DNA of 64,000 bases from an uncultured Oscillospiraceae bacterium. Lineage in GTDB: Bacteria > Spirochaetota > Spirochaetia > Sphaerochaetales > Sphaerochaetaceae. The stretch is from positions 10,931 through 74,930 of the forward strand of contig CAVHKW010000086.1 in the NCBI GenBank assembly GCA_963636745.1, written 5' to 3'. Below are positions 5,508-18,849 of this stretch, in pieces. The position numbers and the translations under genes were made by a program. The first letter of the stretch is position 1; each line of letters starts with the position of its first letter. The notes beneath the pieces are model-generated. The model saw only the letters and a list, made by a program, of their open reading frames with translations, did no database searches and had not been told where the DNA came from.

Positions 5508-6197
5508 ATGAGTTTAATGGTTCTCTCCGTCGGTGGTTCTATTATCGCCCCGGAAAAGGTAAATACAGATTTTTTGAAAGAGTTCAAAGAGGCTATTGTC
5601 AACTATCTTGAAGAAGATAAGGAAAGAAAGCTCATCTTCGTGTGCGGGGGCGGGGCTCCGGCAAGAGTATATCAATCCGCCTATCGTGAAATCACGGGAG
5701 GCAGCAGCAAGGACAGCGAAGACTGGATAGGAATCAAGGCAACTTATCTCAATGCAGAGCTCATGAGAGCAGTCTTCTCCGATTATGCCACATCTCCCGT
5801 TGTGACAAACCCGACAGGAGAGATTGAGAATCCGGGAAGGATCCTCGTTGCCTCGGGATGGAAACCGGGATTCAGTACAGATACCGATGCGGTATATCTT
5901 GCACGACGCTTCGGCGGGAAGAAGATAATAAACCTCTCGAATATCAAAAAGGTCTATACGGATGACCCAAGAAAGAATCCCAATGCACAGCCTATCGATA
6001 CAATAAGCTGGAAGCACTTCCGACAGATGGTAGGTTCGGAGTGGAAACCGGGATTGAATGCTCCGTTTGATCCTATTGCCTCGAAGTTGGCTGAGGAGAG
6101 CGGTCTCACCGTCATATGCGCAGACGGCCGCGATATTAAAAACACAATCGCAATCCTCGAGGAGAAGGACTTTGTAGGAACAACAATCAAGCCCTGA
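5508..6197 (+). CDS. pyrH: Amino-acid-kinase family protein, archaeal-type UMP kinase-like
   Basis: 229 aa. LSVGGSIIAPE, VCGGGAPARVY and GWKPGFSTDTDAVYLA match the uridylate kinase pattern, and the size fits short archaeal-type UMPK. AAAGGAG SD. Confidence 0.6.
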   Translation: MSLMVLSVGGSIIAPEKVNTDFLKEFKEAIVNYLEEDKERKLIFVCGGGAPARVYQSAYREITGGSSKDSEDWIGIKATYLNAELMRAVFSDYATSPVVTNPTGEIENPGRILVASGWKPGFSTDTDAVYLARRFGGKKIINLSNIKKVYTDDPRKNPNAQPIDTISWKHFRQMVGSEWKPGLNAPFDPIASKLAEESGLTVICADGRDIKNTIAILEEKDFVGTTIKP

Positions 6198-7185
6198 CTC
6201 TTTCCCTCTTTAGAGAAAGAAAATAAGGGCTCGGGTCTGCAAAGGGCTGGGGGAAAGGACAATCCTCTCTGAAGTCGGGAATCCAGAGGATGTCATCATC
6301 GCTCTTTTCCTGAATGAACCCGTTTTCTATTCCCTCGTCCTCGACAAGATCTACGAGTTCCCGGTACTCCTCATCGCTGATGGGGAGTAAATCTTTGTCT
6401 CCCTTTGGAGGAACGAACTGGCTCATGAGGGAGAGATAGAAATTATCCTTGTAGTGAGAAGCAAAATAGGATATGAACTTCTTTGAATGATTCACCGTTC
6501 CCGGGAATACAAGGTGACGCAGTATCGTACCTTTTATATTATCCAGATCAGTTGACGGATGCCTCTCTTTTATCCAGTCCATGACGGGGATTATCACATC
6601 GGCGTAGCGGCCCAGTCCGCAATAGACCTTCGATACATTACGGCTGAGACTCTTGCAGTCGAGTAGATATAAGTCAATATACTTATCTATAAGAGCAAGA
6701 GCCTCACAGTTCTCGTATCCCGAACTGTTCCACACAACAGGAAGCTTGAAACCTTTTGAAAAAGCATTCTCGAGGGCATTTACTATGGAAGGGATGAAAT
6801 GTGTTCCCGTCACAAGATTGAGTGTTCTTGCTCCCATTCTCTCGAGGTCCAGAAAGAGAGCGGAAAGTTCCCCGTCAGATATCTCGATTCCGAGATTGGA
6901 GCCGTCGGATCCCGAGATCTGTCTGTTCTGACAGTAGGCACAGTGAAGCGGACACCCCGTGAAAAAGACCATTCCCGAGCCTTTCTCTCCGACCAGCGGC
7001 GGCTCTTCGCCTCTATGAAGTCCCGACCAGGCGATACGGACTTTATCCGACATCTCGCAGCGTCCCTTCCCGCCGTTTGTTCTGTCCACACCGCATAAAT
7101 TCGGGCACAGTTTACATGATGAGTAAATGCTCTTTTCATTCATATCATGTTGATTATACCCAAATATTAACCTTGAACAATCCAC
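6187..7185 (-). CDS. Radical SAM protein, PflX/pyruvate formate-lyase activase-like
   Basis: 332 aa with the CxxxCxxC cluster motif as CPLHCAYCQN. An alternative ATG start is at 7143. The 3' end overlaps the pyrH-like gene by 11 nt (convergent). Confidence 0.75.
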   Translation of the reverse strand: MDCSRLIFGYNQHDMNEKSIYSSCKLCPNLCGVDRTNGGKGRCEMSDKVRIAWSGLHRGEEPPLVGEKGSGMVFFTGCPLHCAYCQNRQISGSDGSNLGIEISDGELSALFLDLERMGARTLNLVTGTHFIPSIVNALENAFSKGFKLPVVWNSSGYENCEALALIDKYIDLYLLDCKSLSRNVSKVYCGLGRYADVIIPVMDWIKERHPSTDLDNIKGTILRHLVFPGTVNHSKKFISYFASHYKDNFYLSLMSQFVPPKGDKDLLPISDEEYRELVDLVEDEGIENGFIQEKSDDDILWIPDFREDCPFPQPFADPSPYFLSLKRERVRA

Positions 7186-13359: not shown

Positions 13360-14195
13360 CGCTCTTTGAGTTGAAGAAAGCATTACTGGGTATCGAAAAT
13401 GATCTGGAGGACCCCTATCTTGAAGTAAGAGTCCTCCTGACAAGTCTTGGTTCCTCCCCCTCGGATCAGATCGCTTACTCCGACAGAACTGTCGATGAAG
13501 ATATTACAAAGAAAGCATTCGAGGATTTCAGGAGACGAATAGAGGGTACCCCGATGGCCTACATAACACACTCGAAAGAGTTCTACGGCCATGACTTCTA
13601 CGTAGACGAGAGCGTTCTCATTCCACGTCCCGACACGGAGACGATAGTTGACAAGGCAATCAATATATATAAAGAAAAGCGGTATAACGGAAGAATTCTC
13701 GACCTCTGTACCGGAAGCGGTGCCATAGCAGCATCCATCTCCAGTGCTCTCGGTCTTCCCGTCTCTTTCAGCGACATATCGAGAGAGGCTTTATCAATAG
13801 CGGAGAAAAACTACATTAATATTACAGGCCGAAAGGAAACGGATGCACGACTGGGATCCCTCTTCGAGCCCTGGAAGGGAGAAAAGTTCTCCCTGATCGC
13901 AACAAACCCTCCCTATCTGACAGAGGAGTGGTTTATAGAAACGGAGAGAAGTGTCAAAAGAGAGCCTCATGTCGCTCTTGTCAGCGATAACACAGACGGC
14001 CTCGATATAATTAAAAAGATTGTCTCATCTTCTCCTCAAGTATTGGAAAAAAATGGTACACTTTTAATTGAATGTGACTACAGACAGATAGATAACCTTT
14101 CTTCCCTATTGAAGGAAAACGGTTTCAGCTCGATCGGGATAGAAAAGGATATGGGTGGACTGGAAAGAGTGGTGTATGGAGAATATAAAGGCTGA
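13356..14195 (+). CDS. prmC: Release factor glutamine N5-methyltransferase (HemK/PrmC)
   Basis: 279 aa. SAM-binding DLCTGSGAI and catalytic NPPY (IATNPPYL). 4-nt overlap with prfA. Confidence 0.85.
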   Translation: MTLFELKKALLGIENDLEDPYLEVRVLLTSLGSSPSDQIAYSDRTVDEDITKKAFEDFRRRIEGTPMAYITHSKEFYGHDFYVDESVLIPRPDTETIVDKAINIYKEKRYNGRILDLCTGSGAIAASISSALGLPVSFSDISREALSIAEKNYINITGRKETDARLGSLFEPWKGEKFSLIATNPPYLTEEWFIETERSVKREPHVALVSDNTDGLDIIKKIVSSSPQVLEKNGTLLIECDYRQIDNLSSLLKENGFSSIGIEKDMGGLERVVYGEYKG

Positions 14196-16239
14196 AGAAA
14201 AAGAAGAAGCAAAGGCAATCGAAATCCCGAACAAGGAACTTGTCGACAGATTTGTTTCCAGAATTCTCAATTACTCGGATATAGACAAGGCCAAGATAAG
14301 CTCGGCAGCTGTCTTTGCGGCCAGGAAACACGGAGACCAGAAGCGTAAAAGCGGGGAGCCGTACCTCATTCATCCGATCGCCGTCGCCGAGATATTGATG
14401 AGCTTCAATATGGATGCCGACACAGTCTGCGCAGGGCTTCTCCACGACACAATTGAAGACACAGGCACAACAGAAGAGGAGATTGCATCCCTCTTCGGTA
14501 AGGAAGTTGCACAGATGGTCCAGGCGGTGACAAAGATCACCAGAATCACCCAGGACAAGTCCATCCAGGAAGCGGAAACCATAAAAAAGATGTTCTTCGC
14601 CATGAGCAAAGACCTCAGGGTAATACTCATTAAGCTTGCCGACAAGCTCCACAACATGAGGACGCTCTCGGGCCTCAGCAGCGAAAGACGAATAGCATAC
14701 GCAAAAGACTGTCTCGATATCTTCGCTCCAATTGCCGACAGCCTCGGTATGCAGACGCTGAAGAGCGAACTCGAAGACCTTTCCCTCAAGGCATTGAAAC
14801 CTGAAAGCTATGAATACATAAACACATACCTGCTTGAAAGAAAAGGCGAGTACACAGCATTCATCAAACAGGTGGCCAGAGCCATCGAAGAAGCATGCAA
14901 GAAAGAGGGTCTCGATAATATAGAGGTAACGGGAAGAGTAAAGCACGCCTACTCCATCTACATGAAAATCAAGAAGAGGAAGAAGGAGATAGACGAGATC
15001 TACGATATCCTGGGCATCCGTGTCATATGTAATACAACAGTCGAATGCTACACCATTCTCGGCATCATCCACTCAATGTGGATCCCGATCGAAGGCAGAT
15101 TCAAAGATTACATCGCAATGCCCAAAGCCAACAACTATCAATCCCTCCATACGACGGTTCTCGGGCCGCAGTCGAGGCATCTCGAGATCCAGATAAGAAC
15201 ATGGGAGATGCATAAGACGGCGGAGGAAGGTGTTGCTGCACACTGGGCTTATAAAGCTGCAAGCGGAAGCGAAAGCGGTGCCTGGAAAAGCATGGACTCC
15301 ATCAACTATCAGAAGATAGTCAAGAAAATCAAATCCTGGTCAAAGGAGATAGAGCAGAGCGAAGACTACATGGAGGAGATAAAGAACGAGCTTTTGAAAG
15401 ACTCCATAGTCGTCTTTACACCACAGGGCCATGTCATAGAACTACCTGTCGGATCGACTGCACTTGACTTTGCCTATAAAATCCACACCGAGGTCGGTAA
15501 CCACTGCTCGGGAGCGAAGGCGGACGGCTCAATCATCCCGTTGAATAAGCCTCTCGCCAACACCCAGATAGTCGAAATCATGACATCACCCTCGGCTCAC
15601 CCTAACCAGCAGTGGCTTGAGGCTGCAGCGGCAACCTCCACAAAGAAGAAGATAAAAGCATGGCTCAACAGATATCAGAGCGCAAACGTACCGGAGGTGA
15701 ATAAGCCGGTAGTAGCACAGCCGCTGCCAAAGAAAGTGCCGCAGCCTACCAATCCCGCAAAGCTCATCAACGGCACACTCAGCTATGTCTCCCCCGAAAC
15801 AAAAGGAACACTGATGGTCGGAGAGGACAGCAACATAATGTATTCATTTGCCAAGTGCTGCTCTCCTATGCAGGGCGATGACGTTGTGGCATATATCACG
15901 AGGGGACGCGGCTACATCATACACCGCAGAGACTGTTCAAACCTCAGCCATATGGCGGAGGTGAATGAGAGAACTGTCTCTGTAAAGTGGACCGGAGATG
16001 AATTGATGAAGCACTACCATGTTACGACAAAGATCGATCAGGATATCTTCGGACAGATCGAAAATGCCGTAAGAACACATGGTGGAAGACTCCGTAAGGG
16101 TACTCTCGGCATTGACGGCAACAGGCTCACGGGCGACTTCACGATAATCGCGGAAAGCGAAGATGCAATCAGAAAATGCACCTCCGCAATAAGAACAATA
16201 CCGACTGTCATCGAATTGACAGGGATAGCGGGAAAGTGA
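14155..16239 (+). CDS. rel: Bifunctional (p)ppGpp synthetase/hydrolase (RelA/SpoT homologue)
   Basis: 694 aa. HD hydrolase domain (HGDQKRKSGEPYLIHP, HDTIEDT), synthetase domain (RVKHAYSIYMKIKKR, DILGIRVI), and TGS and ACT-like C-terminal regions. The start is GTG 14155 or ATG 14176; both overlap the prmC end. Confidence 0.9.
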   Translation: MDWKEWCMENIKAEEKEEAKAIEIPNKELVDRFVSRILNYSDIDKAKISSAAVFAARKHGDQKRKSGEPYLIHPIAVAEILMSFNMDADTVCAGLLHDTIEDTGTTEEEIASLFGKEVAQMVQAVTKITRITQDKSIQEAETIKKMFFAMSKDLRVILIKLADKLHNMRTLSGLSSERRIAYAKDCLDIFAPIADSLGMQTLKSELEDLSLKALKPESYEYINTYLLERKGEYTAFIKQVARAIEEACKKEGLDNIEVTGRVKHAYSIYMKIKKRKKEIDEIYDILGIRVICNTTVECYTILGIIHSMWIPIEGRFKDYIAMPKANNYQSLHTTVLGPQSRHLEIQIRTWEMHKTAEEGVAAHWAYKAASGSESGAWKSMDSINYQKIVKKIKSWSKEIEQSEDYMEEIKNELLKDSIVVFTPQGHVIELPVGSTALDFAYKIHTEVGNHCSGAKADGSIIPLNKPLANTQIVEIMTSPSAHPNQQWLEAAAATSTKKKIKAWLNRYQSANVPEVNKPVVAQPLPKKVPQPTNPAKLINGTLSYVSPETKGTLMVGEDSNIMYSFAKCCSPMQGDDVVAYITRGRGYIIHRRDCSNLSHMAEVNERTVSVKWTGDELMKHYHVTTKIDQDIFGQIENAVRTHGGRLRKGTLGIDGNRLTGDFTIIAESEDAIRKCTSAIRTIPTVIELTGIAGK

Positions 16240-16282
16240 AACCCAATCGGAGAACGTAATCAAAAAAAACCAACTTTTCATC

Positions 16283-16337
16283 AAAAGTGTCACTTTTCTA
16301 GCCACTTTTGCTATTTCTTTTTCCATTACACTATATT
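16283..16337 (+). promoter_or_regulatory. Palindrome AAAAGTG-T-CACTTTT plus sigma70-like promoter (TTGCTA-N18-TATATT), copy 1
   Basis: Palindrome 16283-16297, extra half-site 16303-16309, -35 at 16308-13, -10 at 16332-37. Confidence 0.35.
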
Positions 16338-16428
16338 CAGCGCTGTAAGCGGATAAGGGTGTCACCTTGCTGTTCGGGAACAAAAGACGACTTTGTCGTT
16401 CTTATTCTTTGAAAAGGAGGTGAGCTGT

Positions 16429-16575
16429 ATGAATTTGAAGTTTATTATTTTGATTCTCTCAACAGTCAATGACGTTTTCGAGCTTGCTCGGAATTTCAGC
16501 TGGATGATGAAGTGTTTCAAAAAAGTAAAAACCAAAATAAATACCGCCCTACGCTCCACCAAAGCTAGGCGGTAA
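16429..16575 (+). CDS. Small basic protein, 48 aa (candidate type I toxin-like peptide), copy 1
   Basis: ATG preceded by AAGGAGGTGA with 8-nt spacing. Peptide: MNLKFIILILSTVNDVFELARNFSWMMKCFKKVKTKINTALRSTKARR. It is the internal-Met version of track ORF 16393-16575. Confidence 0.45.
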   Translation: MNLKFIILILSTVNDVFELARNFSWMMKCFKKVKTKINTALRSTKARR

Positions 16576-16710
16576 TACAACAAACCGAATAGCAAGGGGC
16601 ACCTCTTTACAGCGCCTTCTTGTAAAAACAATATAACACTGCCCGCAAAATTTGAAAAGACATAATCTCCACTTCAAAGAAAGTAATTTCTTGAAGAAGC
16701 AGAGCGCTGT

Positions 16711-16819
16711 CTTATCGAATGAATAAACTCCCTCTCAATACACCCGGCATGTCATAGACACAAAACCGGATCTCATTCCAGAGGAAACGGCGACGGTATT
16801 ATGAATCTGTAGTCAAAAG
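16711..16819 (-). pseudogene. Decayed duplicate of the 3' end of the CBS-pyrophosphatase gene
   Basis: Aligns to 17243-17370. Reads LTTDS*YRRRFLWNEIRFCVYDMPGVL..., whereas the intact gene reads LTTDSKYRRRFLWNEIRSCAYEMPGVL. It has a net 19-nt deletion. Confidence 0.8.
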
Positions 16820-16869
16820 TGTCACTTTTCTAGCCACTTTTGATGTTTCTTTTTCCATTACACTATATT
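16815..16869 (+). promoter_or_regulatory. The same palindrome plus promoter-like element (TTGATG-N18-TATATT), copy 2
   Basis: Identical to copy 1 except for two bases inside the -35 hexamer. Confidence 0.35.
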
Positions 16870-16960
16870 CAGCGCTGTAAGCGGATAAGGGTGTCACCTT
16901 GCTGTTCGGGAACAAAAGACGACTTTGTCGTTCTTATTCTTTGAAAAGGAGGTGAGCTGT

Positions 16961-17107
16961 ATGAATTTGAAGTTTATTATTTTGATTCTCTCAACAGTCA
17001 ATGACGTTTTCGAGCTTGCTCGGAATTTCAGCTGGATGATGAAGTGTTTCAAAAAAGTAAAAACCAAAATAAATACCGCCCTACGCTCCGGAAAAGCTAG
17101 GCGGTAA
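16961..17107 (+). CDS. Small basic protein, 48 aa, copy 2 (T44G)
   Basis: Same SD and ORF as copy 1. The only difference is codon 44 (ACC versus GGA). Confidence 0.45.
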   Translation: MNLKFIILILSTVNDVFELARNFSWMMKCFKKVKTKINTALRSGKARR

Positions 17108-17238
17108 ACCAAATACCGAATAGCAAGGGGCACCTCTTTACAGCGCCTTCTTGTATAGACAATATAACACTACCCGTAGAATTTGAAAAGATATAACTTC
17201 CACTTTCAGGATAAGCAATTAAATGGACAGGTAAAGAG

Positions 17239-18849
17239 CTATTCTATCGAATGAATAACCTCCGGGAGAAGCTGCTTCTTCCGGCTTAACACACCCGGCA
17301 TTTCATAGGCACATGATCGGATCTCATTCCAGAGGAAACGCCTGCGATATTTTGAATCCGTAGTCAAAAGAATGCTTTCCTCCTTCAATACATCGGTAAT
17401 CATAAGCATAGCCCAGTCAAGGCCGCGGTTGCCCTTTATCGTATTGAGAGTTTCTAGATACTTCTCTTCATAACTTGCTATGTCGCTGAGCGTCGTCACC
17501 TCACACTGTCCGATTGCAAACTTCACTCCCTTCTCGCTGTAAGTCTTGAAGTCTCCCTCTATTGCAGAGACAGGTTCTCTGTTTGCCAGACTGTCGATTA
17601 CGGAGAAGAGTTTGGCTCCGAATGCGTGTATATCGTATTCACCCGATATCGCGGCAAGGGCTCCGGCTGCTGTCTTATCGATTTGAGTCGTTGTCGGACT
17701 CCTGAGGACAAGAGTATCAGACATGATACCTGTCAAGAGAACACGGGCTGTAGTTTCATCCGGGACGATATTATGTCTCAGGTATTGCTGATATATTATA
17801 GTACATGTACTTCCGAGAGGCTCTGCATCTATGAATATCGGGAGACTCGTCTTCAGGGCATCAAGCCTGTGGTGATCAATAATCTCGATAACAGATGCCT
17901 CCTCTATTCCCCTTATACTCTGCCCCACTTCATTATGGTCTACAAGAATAACACTGTATTGAGGTTTCTTTAGAAAACATCTCCTTGTTACATAGCCGAC
18001 AAACTCATCGTCGTCGAATACGGCAAGGCCTCTCAGGAGGGAGGACGAGAGCGCTTCCCTCGCATCGTCGAAGAAATCATTGACGCCGAGGCGCGGTCCC
18101 TGTTTACCCATAATCGTCCTCACGCTAGGTGTCATTCTCAGTCTTCTCTCAACTTCAGCTGTCTGAAGCTCCGTCAGGTACACAGTTCCCTCATAAGACG
18201 AGAAGTCTATATCCTCATAACTTGACGAAGCTGTAATGATGATGGCCTCCACACCCTTCCTCATCGCATACTCTATATAGCGCTTACGGTAGCCTATGAC
18301 GACCACAGTATCTTTAGAGCCGTCGACAAAGTGACAGAAATCCTCATAAGCTGCAGCTCCTGCAAGGATGGAGGCGTTAAAGCTCTCCTTCCCTCTTTTG
18401 ATAATCCTGCCGGGTATGACAGTCTCGATATTTGATACGAGGAAATCATAATGAGGAGTCTCCTCTCTGTTATCTCTCAAGAACCAGGAAGTAATATCGT
18501 CAACACTCAAAAGACCGACGAAGGAACCCTTGTCATAGACGGGGAAAGCCGATGGATGTGTCTCGTTATATGCTTTGACAAGATTATATATCGGAGCCTC
18601 TGCTTCAACCTTCTCCGTCGGAAGCAGCATAACATCCCTCACCTTCGGTTTAACGTCCCTCATATATTCAGGAACAGGCACCCCTAACAGACCGAACTGT
18701 TTCTCGACTCCTTCACTCATATGGCCACACCTTACGGCATGATAGCGGTTATCTCTGTCTATATGATTCTTCAACTCTGCATAACCGTAAGCCGAACAGA
18801 TGCTGTCAAGGTCCGGATTGCGGTGTCCTGTGATGTAAATATCCTTCAT
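17239..18849 (-). CDS. DHH-CBS-DHHA2 protein (CBS-domain family II inorganic pyrophosphatase-like)
   Basis: 536 aa. N-terminal HRNPDLDSICSA, DHH motif (ILVDHNE), internal CBS pair and a DRTGG-like segment, and a C-terminal DHHA2-like region. Confidence 0.7.
   Translation of the reverse strand: MKDIYITGHRNPDLDSICSAYGYAELKNHIDRDNRYHAVRCGHMSEGVEKQFGLLGVPVPEYMRDVKPKVRDVMLLPTEKVEAEAPIYNLVKAYNETHPSAFPVYDKGSFVGLLSVDDITSWFLRDNREETPHYDFLVSNIETVIPGRIIKRGKESFNASILAGAAAYEDFCHFVDGSKDTVVVIGYRKRYIEYAMRKGVEAIIITASSSYEDIDFSSYEGTVYLTELQTAEVERRLRMTPSVRTIMGKQGPRLGVNDFFDDAREALSSSLLRGLAVFDDDEFVGYVTRRCFLKKPQYSVILVDHNEVGQSIRGIEEASVIEIIDHHRLDALKTSLPIFIDAEPLGSTCTIIYQQYLRHNIVPDETTARVLLTGIMSDTLVLRSPTTTQIDKTAAGALAAISGEYDIHAFGAKLFSVIDSLANREPVSAIEGDFKTYSEKGVKFAIGQCEVTTLSDIASYEEKYLETLNTIKGNRGLDWAMLMITDVLKEESILLTTDSKYRRRFLWNEIRSCAYEMPGVLSRKKQLLPEVIHSIE

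Follow-up and report, generated by a model that had tools for sequence, protein, structure and literature searches.

A stretch of 64,000 nt from an uncultured bacterium that GTDB places in the Sphaerochaetaceae (Spirochaetota; contig CAVHKW010000086.1 of assembly GCA_963636745.1, positions 10,931 to 74,930; hereafter the window) contains two copies of a small element in which a basic 48-residue peptide is encoded inside a long-range RNA helix. We propose that each of them is a type I toxin-antitoxin-like module and that they represent a hitherto undescribed family, and on computation alone we give this reading a probability of roughly 0.55. It is based on a conserved fold-back helix with covariation and a strand bias, a coding open reading frame (ORF), a predicted antisense gene and the linkage between ORF and helix. 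Further grounds are the tandem multiplication of the element, its place in a variable islet that also holds a HigB-like/HigA module, the size of the predicted mRNA and the way in which the Shine-Dalgarno sequence (SD) is countered by anti-SD elements. The signatures of the ORF, the helix and the antisense gene, as well as their conservation and strand bias, are seen in silico.

In the window the element is intergenic and lies between two convergent genes, a RelA/SpoT gene upstream (14155-16239, + strand) and, on the other flank, a gene for a putative DHH-CBS-DHHA2 pyrophosphatase (17239-18849, - strand). Copy 1 spans 16338-16624 and copy 2 16870-17155, 532 nt further downstream, as an earlier sequence-only reading of the window had noted; all its coordinates and sequences were right when checked on the window sequence. 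The 20-nt 5' arm of the helix occurs twice in the 64 kb, both times at the copies, against a chance expectation of 0. Relatives were reached via the loci of the neighbour genes and then by tblastn of those loci. The RelA/SpoT and DHH proteins have their nearest relatives in Sphaerochaetaceae/Spirochaetales gut assemblies, and the element was found only at the relA/DHH intergenic site of a few Sphaerochaetaceae gut assemblies that represent three lineages. In every lineage it sits downstream of the DHH gene; most of the related genomes examined at this site lack it. The window type comprises the two window copies, L035 with one copy, L056 (an independent assembly, 98% identical to the window) with two tandem copies and L055 with one degraded copy. 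In the L038 lineage the peptide is 67% identical, and in the L002 type (L002 and L039-L048) it is 46% identical. Tandem multiplication recurs in the window, L056 and the L039 type.

The ORF is enclosed by imperfect inverted repeats around ~270 bp. On the + strand the 5' arm (16339-16377; copy 2: 16871-16909) reads A/GCGCUGUAA, GGA, GGUGUC(A)CCUUGCUGUUCGG and holds a C-rich motif, UCACCUU, and the 3' arm, CCGAAUAGCAAGGGGCACCUCUUUACAGCGCC, lies at 16585-16616 (copy 2: 17116-17147), as delimited by folding and a pair table. Within these arms GCGCTGTAA (16340-48) pairs with TTACAGCGC (16607-15) and GGTGTCACCTTGCTGTTCGG (16358-77) with CCGAATAGCAAGGGGCACC (16585-16603). When folded as RNA, 16338-16624 closes through the arms with a minimum free energy of -93.7 kcal/mol (z = -5.3, with 0 of 200 shuffles as good), and copy 2 (z = -4.8) does the same; the L002 fold has a z of -6.2. 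The opposite strand of copy 1 folds less well (-86.8 kcal/mol). The arm duplex of the window has -49.3 kcal/mol on the + strand versus -39.9 kcal/mol on the - strand, and in every intact copy the ORF strand is the more stable one, by 7-9 kcal/mol for the arms and by 7-19 kcal/mol for the full-length fold. The sequence-only reading had predicted the end-to-end fold and had argued from two wobble pairs that it acts as RNA on the ORF strand, and both claims are borne out by these energies.

The helix is also kept by covariation, which the sequence-only reading had named as a check. Pairs were counted with an explicit script; an arms-only MAFFT alignment was out of structural register between the two deep lineages, the window and L002 types. 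In all full-length copies of both, the first ~39 nt pair with the last ~32 nt, with 31 of 32 canonical arm pairs in the window type and 31 of 31 in the L039 type. Two-sided changes between the lineages were found at A6 (G-C to A-U), A7 (U-A to C-G) and D7 and D8 (U-A to G-C), which makes four compensatory pairs under a conservative count and up to seven if the registers of B2, B3 and D9 are homologous. One-sided changes pass via G·U at A9, C1 and D6, and at B0 between L002 and L039. Within lineages the arm substitutions turn A-U into G·U (L002 to L039) or G-C into G·U (copy 2 of L056, C to U opposite G). The L038 3' arm, CUCGUCUAAAGCGCC, has a C at the wobble U of the window, and its 5' arm is predicted to be GGCGCUUUAGACGAG-like, at least GCGCUUUAG, ~75-90 nt upstream of the ATG. 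Taken together, a conserved long-range 5'-3' helix that acts on the ORF strand is supported.

Alternatively, the inverted repeats could be DNA terminal repeats of a miniature mobile element that carries a small ORF. The imperfect repeats around ~270 bp would fit this and so would the site, which is an insertion hot spot with alternative cargos, but we consider it very improbable. No copies were found elsewhere in the window or in 55-56 related loci, the arms have no flanking target-site duplication, and no transposase is present. Moreover, the complementarity is strand-asymmetric, with G·U on the ORF strand versus A·C on the other, a difference of 7-9 kcal/mol. Copy 2 itself stems from a tandem duplication of a 532-bp unit that takes in the last ~100 nt of the neighbouring DHH gene, and the microhomology TCAAAAG is present at its three junctions (16279, 16811 and 17362). 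The duplication also brought with it a copy of the 3' end of the DHH-CBS pyrophosphatase gene (16713-16812, - strand), now decayed by a nonsense change and a deletion of 19 nt.

The linkage between ORF and helix is seen in L055, where a decaying copy lies at 5605-5986. An 11-nt deletion in codons 7-10 shifts the frame of its ORF after codon 6, all three substitutions in the arms break pairs (28 of 32 remain canonical) and the hairpin in the 5' untranslated region (5'-UTR) is disrupted. The strand bias is gone as well, with an arm energy of -32.7 kcal/mol on the ORF strand versus -34.2 kcal/mol on the other, and the -10 of the antisense promoter has changed from TATATT to TATATC. Compared with the window, the element of L055 is 88% identical and its flanks 96%. 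The frameshift together with the degraded helix implies that the helix is kept only while the ORF is intact.

The ORF of copy 1 (16429-16575, + strand) has 48 codons and encodes MNLKFIILILSTVNDVFELARNFSWMMKCFKKVKTKINTALRSTKARR, the putative toxin; that of copy 2 (16961-17107, + strand) differs only at codon 44 (Thr to Gly). A strong SD, AAGGAGGUG, lies 6 nt 5' of the ATG at 16414-16422 (copy 2: 16946-16954, + strand), within AAGGAGGTGA at 16414-16423 upstream of the ATG at 16429, and its GGAGGTG is invariant across all lineages. Orthologues with 48 codons are present in L035, L056 (two copies), L038, L002 and L039-L045, and in every intact copy the ORF starts with ATG behind the same SD and is exactly 48 codons long. 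Conservation of the ORF in relatives, another check that had been proposed, is thus seen in three lineages, in which the 48 codons are free of indels at 40-60% nucleotide divergence. Between the two deep lineages 58 of 147 ORF positions differ without an indel, and the ORF frame is the only frame open in both. Differences in codons 1-20 fall on codon positions 1, 2 and 3 in 6, 2 and 10 cases, respectively, and for the three deep pairs the ratio of non-synonymous to synonymous substitution rates (dN/dS) is 0.20-0.31 over codons 1-20, rising to 0.4-0.8 over codons 21-48. The ORFs of L002 and L039 differ by four synonymous and two non-synonymous changes. These data support the ORF as a real, conserved small coding gene. 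Gene finders skip it in the related assemblies.

The peptide has 11 K/R versus 2 D/E (net charge +9) and a conserved core, MNxK.I.FI.S..ND.F[ED]L. AlphaFold2, run on the single sequence, predicts one helix over residues 3-47 (predicted local distance difference test score 91.5), in which ~12 hydrophobic N-terminal residues precede an amphipathic cationic stretch. One helical face carries the polar residues 14, 15, 18, 21 and 22 (N14, D15, E/D18, R/Q21, N/H22).

A convergent antisense RNA gene, missed by the sequence-only reading, is predicted to overlap the 3' part of the element. The putative antitoxin of copy 1 is an RNA of ~90 nt, 5'-ACAAGAAGGCGCUGUAAAGAGGUGCCCCUUGCU...-3', on the - strand at 16534-16623, as delimited by a covariance model and a phylogenetic footprint; its counterpart in copy 2 (17066-17154, - strand) is identical to that of L035. 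In all lineages it is predicted to be 89-96 nt long with the same fold, which consists of a 5' stem-loop (CAAG/CUUG enclosing GGCGCU-loop-(A/G)GUGCC), a single-stranded linker of 16-25 nt, a GC-rich stop-codon hairpin and an AUUU(A/C)UUUU end. Upstream of it lies a promoter-like site on the - strand, TTTTCA-17 nt-TG-T-TATATT, with an extended -10 (16630-16658; copy 2: 17161-17189; 9/12 matches plus the TG in a consensus scan), read in the window from 16658 to 16630 as TTTTCA-17-TGTTATATT. Its counterparts are TTTCCA-17-TGTTAAATT in the L002 type and TTTCCT-17-TGCTATATT in L038, with diverged spacers, and the invariant ACAAGAAGGCGCU that starts 6-7 nt past the promoter forms the predicted 5' end of the antisense RNA. 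At its other end, the hairpin ACCGCC..GGCGGU, which reaches up to the stop codon (16543-16573; copy 2: 17075-17105), would form on the - strand an intrinsic terminator with AUUUAUUUUGGUUUUU (16542-16520). The terminator stem is invariant and the U-tract is kept in all three lineages. Read on the - strand, hairpin column 63/81 is C-G for the L002 type; the window type has U·G there, which would become C·A if read on the + strand. The signatures of an antisense gene, namely a -35, an extended -10, the invariant 5' end, two stem-loops and a U-tract, are thus present in three lineages. With the mRNA of copy 1 the antisense RNA would show full complementarity from the 3' arm across the stop codon into the last ~13 codons. 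In the window and 55 related loci the covariance model matches only beside ORF copies; one further match, in L018 (E = 0.23), was an ordinary terminator and was discarded.

Codons 31-38 (16520-16542; copy 2: 17052-17074), A-rich and encoding Lys, Asn and Ile, correspond on the opposite strand to the U-tract of the predicted antisense terminator, a coincidence that the sequence-only reading had not noted. A constraint at the RNA level may therefore dictate part of the peptide's basic tail. A truncated second copy adjoins the DHH gene in L039 (4664-4830) and also in L040, L041, L043, L044 and L046-L048. This copy keeps codons 18-48, the 3' arm and the full antisense gene with its promoter, RNA and terminator, and has no toxin promoter, 5'-UTR, SD or codons 1-17. 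It resembles an orphan antitoxin.

Since conservation within the element is highest in the 3' region, with the antisense RNA and its promoter, it could also be argued that only a small RNA on the - strand is functional, or that the element provides terminators for the convergent relA and DHH genes, with the ORF as an incidental feature. The stop-codon hairpin of the window type is better on the - strand, the Lys-rich codons complement the U-tract and the truncated copy keeps just the antisense part. We regard this as improbable, since it leaves the 48 codons, SD and ATG kept in three lineages unexplained, as well as the codon-position bias and the dN/dS of 0.2-0.3 in the N-terminal half, a part that the antisense RNA does not cover. 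A wobble bias towards the ORF strand is likewise seen in the conserved 5' arm and 5'-UTR hairpin, and in the L002 type no upstream gene reads into the element.

A terminator scan found a terminator-like hairpin, not noted by the sequence-only reading, in the 5'-UTR (16386-16410; copy 2: 16918-16942; + strand), GACGAC-UUU-GUCGUU followed by the CU-rich tract CUUAUUCUUU, which would act as a local anti-SD. The scan also scored the 5'-UTR hairpin of L039 as terminator-like, with a different stem (ATCCGGGA/TTCCGGAT and CCGTTTTTAT), and within the L002 type AG to GA changes keep its pairing via G·U on the ORF strand only. In the predicted ensembles of the window lineage the CU-rich tail of this hairpin is the partner of the SD, and in the closed form of the L002 type codons 8-10 take this role. 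When the 3' arm is masked or absent, the SD is predicted to be taken in three of four sequences by the C-rich 5'-arm motif, which reads UCACCUU in window-type and CCCCUU in L002-type elements, with a probability of pairing of 0.72-0.93. The predicted probability that GGAGGUG is paired is 0.67-0.93 in every state. The sequence-only reading had proposed that the 3' arm itself occludes the SD. The CACCTC at 16600-05 is indeed complementary to GAGGTG at 16417-22, but this complementarity is absent from the 3' arms of the L002 type and L038, and pairing of the SD with the 3' arm was seen in no predicted ensemble. Occlusion by the 3'-arm CACCUC was therefore rejected.

A promoter-like site for the toxin mRNA, TTGCTA-18 nt-TATATT, is located at 16308-16337 (copy 2: 16840-16869; + strand; 9/12 in the consensus scan). 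The same scan found no equally good hexamers in the L002 type, so that the exact promoter on the ORF strand and the start of the mRNA, probably at ~16339-16345 where the 5' arm begins, are placed by inference only.

In the scheme that we propose, we infer transcription, the RNA ends, toxicity and the order of events. Transcription from the promoter at ~16308-16337 would yield an mRNA of ~285 nt, of which the first ~39 nt pair with the last ~32 nt in ~31 bp. This pairing of the ends would make the transcript closed, compact and probably long-lived. Before the 3' arm has been made, or while it is occupied, the SD would pair with the C-rich motif of the 5' arm, and in the closed form it would be held by the CU-rich tail of the 5'-UTR hairpin or, in the L002 type, by codons 8-10. 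The translated peptide, a cationic single helix of 48 residues with a hydrophobic N-terminal third and a polar stripe, is presumed to be membrane-active or otherwise growth-inhibiting. From the convergent promoter past the 3' arm an antisense RNA of ~90 nt would be made, ended by the stop-codon hairpin as intrinsic terminator. Together with the 3' arm and the last ~13 codons it would form a long duplex that could serve as substrate for RNase III-type decay, and its pairing would displace the 5' arm, which is then free to clamp the SD. In a further-reaching version of this scheme, which we think unlikely, the 3' arm would be the hub of a three-way switch, pairing either with the 5' arm (closed, stable and silent) or with the cis-antisense RNA (decay, with the C-rich 5'-arm motif freed to clamp the SD). 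A single antisense RNA, acting at the distal end of the mRNA, would then govern its stability as well as its translation.

The sequence-only reading did not recognise the peptide as a described family, and this holds. None of the three peptide variants matches a Pfam or NCBIfam family, and the Rfam search (E<=10) gave only chance matches far below threshold and no antitoxin family. The peptide had no match in a word-indexed, clustered set of 5.8 billion proteins, an exact-sequence look-up was empty, and back-translated peptide patterns found nothing in GTDB genomes or JGI metagenomes; a DNA-pattern scan of viral contigs was also negative. Two candidates were discarded. The single metagenome match to the DNA pattern, L037, is an unrelated GC-rich contig and a chance match, and the only phmmer match among 1.84 billion representatives, P0001, is a low-complexity protein of 682 amino acids. 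Since P0001 matches 11 unrelated Pfam families and has no discrete domain, we consider it a composition artefact.

A competing explanation for the same ORF is an ordinary, non-toxic small basic protein, for instance a helix that binds nucleic acids or the ribosome, whose structured mRNA is tuned by a cis-antisense RNA. The hydrophobicity of the peptide is under the range of membrane helices, its net charge is +9 and it is predicted to be a single long helix; purifying selection would be equally expected of a useful protein. This is the main rival, although we consider it unlikely in view of the distribution of the element, which is very narrow and patchy and confined to one variable intergenic site. 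Furthermore, the element is readily lost or pseudogenised (as in L055) and multiplies in tandem, an orphan antisense copy has been retained without an ORF start, and a type II toxin-antitoxin system is a neighbour. The narrow range, the losses, the tandem copies, the orphan antisense gene and the type II neighbour are typical of selfish toxin-antitoxin cassettes and not of housekeeping proteins.

Several points weigh against a type I module. Firstly, the highest Kyte-Doolittle mean over 19 residues of the peptide is 1.33, below the usual level of membrane helices, so that a caveat of the sequence-only reading about the short hydrophobic stretch holds; type I toxins are hydrophobic and as a rule span the membrane, and by the same measure the classical ones Hok, TisB, Fst and BsrG reach ~2.2-2.5. 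No homologue was found in Pfam, NCBIfam, Rfam or large protein sets. Secondly, both arms of the helix are known in two deep lineages only, as the L038 contig ends 19 nt upstream of the ATG, and the near-identity of the window copies in 5'-UTR and ORF reflects gene conversion (see below) and not selection only. Thirdly, the antisense promoter passes the scan, which has a threshold of 9/12 consensus matches, in the window lineage only; the L002 type and L038 are below it. Support for this promoter therefore comes from the phylogenetic footprint and not from consensus strength. The stems of the antisense RNA show no two-sided covariation, and the terminator on the - strand could simply serve the convergent DHH gene. 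Lastly, no convincing intrinsic terminator was found for the mRNA on the ORF strand.

To our knowledge, type I toxin-antitoxin systems have hardly been reported outside Proteobacteria and Firmicutes, and a full-text literature search found no paper on a spirochaete type I system. Type I loci are badly under-annotated, as their genes are tiny and evolve fast. In the par system, RNA I has a 5' 'upstream helix' and a terminator that it shares with RNA II. Type I toxin mRNAs are 150-400 nt long and carry a small ORF (<60 amino acids) with its own SD, which is sequestered by local or long-distance anti-SD elements, and are paired with an antisense RNA (PMC8594479). Tandem repeats are another trait of type I loci (T1TAdb paper, PMC8594479). 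The element has a predicted mRNA of ~285 nt with 48 codons and an SD, and in silico also cis elements that sequester the SD and a long-distance interaction. The general design of a type I toxin mRNA that had been suggested for the locus is thus supported.

In hok/sok and the AapA/IsoA family of Helicobacter, as predicted for the element, the toxin mRNA is closed 5' to 3', the peptide is tiny and the chromosomal loci are multi-copy, and CU-rich anti-SD sequences on either side mask the SD during and after transcription (PMC6733600, PMC8594479); in aapA3 successive CU-rich anti-SD hairpins do so (PMC6733600). The element also has an fbi-type 3'-terminal part that pairs with the 5' end as in hok/sok. 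The hok-like layout claimed by the sequence-only reading therefore stands with regard to fold-back closure, but not further, since Pfam, NCBIfam, Rfam and the ORF list gave no Hok/Gef peptide, no mok leader ORF and no 5' Sok-type antisense RNA. In both known systems the antisense RNA lies within the mRNA, at the 5'-UTR or the ORF start, whereas the only conserved antisense signature of the element is at the 3' end; and in those systems the 3' end carries the anti-SD, whereas the 3' arm of the element is not a conserved partner of the SD.

A convergent antisense RNA that overlaps the 3' end and reaches the ORF is known from the Gram-positive TxpA/RatA, BsrE/G/H, YonT and SprG/SprF systems (PMC8594479). 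The element resembles bsrG/SR4, txpA/RatA, yonT/SR6, sprG/SprF and Fst/RNAII par in its predicted 3'-overlapping antisense RNA of ~90-100 nt (PMC8594479). Binding of SR4 at the 3' end of bsrG mRNA tightens pairing of the SD remotely, and in the element, too, an antitoxin bound at the 3' end could alter the pairing of a distant SD (PMC3834814). These families were described in Firmicutes, whereas the element is found in Spirochaetota and has no sequence homology to them; in addition, the target of its antisense RNA would be the very mRNA-closing strand to which the 5' arm binds, so that both would contend for a single site, and its peptide is far more cationic and less hydrophobic than their toxins. 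The peptide, as predicted, shares with the cationic/amphipathic TisB/AapA1-type toxins a short single helix with polar or charged residues on one face. It has no homology to these, is longer with its 48 amino acids, and its C-terminal 20 residues are highly basic and may in part be dictated by the terminator. The hydropathy of AapA1 is 1.35 and close to the 1.33 of the peptide. Judged from these comparisons, the element belongs to no described type I family and would form a new family of a known class. The stronger claim that it is the first type I family of the Spirochaetota, that it works as a three-way RNA switch and that a cationic 48-residue helix is a new kind of toxin is tentative, and we think it doubtful as a whole.

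If the type I reading is true, it would extend this class to gut spirochaetes and add a toxin family without detectable relatives. It would also combine end-to-end closure of the mRNA with a 3'-overlapping antisense RNA, two designs that usually come from different phyla. Independently of this, synteny of neighbour genes together with a strand-bias test of RNA structure offers a practical route to orphan small genes that protein databases miss altogether.

The two copies of the window have diverged unevenly. The element proper differs at 16 of 382 positions and the downstream DHH-derived part at 53 of 157; none of the 16 differences falls in an arm, the SD, a hairpin stem or a promoter hexamer. 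Within the window and within L056 the 5'-UTR and ORF are identical between the copies (window 16340-16575 versus 16872-17107; L056 5661-5900 versus 6122-6360), and between the two genomes they differ. The 3' parts are orthologous by position instead, as copy 1 of the window corresponds to copy 1 of L056, and copy 2 of the window matches copy 2 of L056 and L035. The identity within genomes and the positional orthology of the 3' parts reflect gene conversion after an older duplication. A stretch of 244 nt without differences was initially read as purifying selection, and this was dropped after comparison with L056 and L035 showed concerted evolution. The single copy of L035 has copy-1-type sequence upstream and copy-2-type sequence downstream, and may be either a recombinational collapse or an assembly collapse. 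Metagenome contigs often break in or beside the element (the L038 end at 2517, the ends of L043-L048 and those of L034 and L035). This is consistent with trouble in the assembly of tandem repeats, so that copy number is uncertain in single-copy assemblies such as L035.

Upstream of the toxin mRNA lies a conserved 30-mer, CAAAAGTGTCACTTTTCTAGCCACTTTTGC (16282-16311; copy 2: 16814-16843; + strand), which includes the palindrome AAAAGTGTCACTTTT and extends into the -35 region of the ORF-strand promoter. It is identical at 30 of 30 positions between the window and L002-type loci, whereas the rest of the elements is ~65% identical; L035 has two substitutions and the two L056 copies one or two. In the window it has two matches only. 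It could be an UP element, an operator or a -35. Readings as a sigma-54 site or LexA box were dropped by eye, since the invariant GG/GC or the known box patterns are not matched.

The intergenic site between relA and DHH (window 16240-17238; loci L001-L019, L028, L049 and L054) is an insertion hot spot. It is nearly empty, with 7-140 bp, in L012, L016, L007, L009 and L019, and it carries an AAA_14/DUF4143 ATPase in L001, L004-L006, L008, L010, L011, L028, L049 and L054 and a lipoprotein-like ORF in L014 and L018. L002-type loci combine the small-ORF element at this site with a HigB-like toxin and a HigA-M78 peptidase pair. In L002 (5527-6943) an ORF of 124 amino acids with weak HigB/YoeB-like similarity overlaps one for a protein of 363 amino acids, which has a HigA-type helix-turn-helix (TIGR02607, E = 1.4e-17) and a weak M78/IrrE-like peptidase region. 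The pair appears to be type II toxin-antitoxin-like; it is divergent from the small ORF and shares the 30-mer region with it. Upstream of the DUF4143 ATPase genes three to four direct repeats of a locus-specific motif, such as GCAAAAGGTGGCA, GCAAAGTCGGGCA, GCAAAATCGGGCA and GCAAAGTAGGGCA, are spaced ~33-35 nt apart, downstream of the DHH stop in L004 (6640-6740), L008 (6640-6720), L028 (6640-6760) and L011 (4720-4810). Read in reverse complement (GCAAAAGTGGCTAGAAAAGTGAC), the 30-mer is similar to these repeats, which suggests an operator or recombination motif common to this site.

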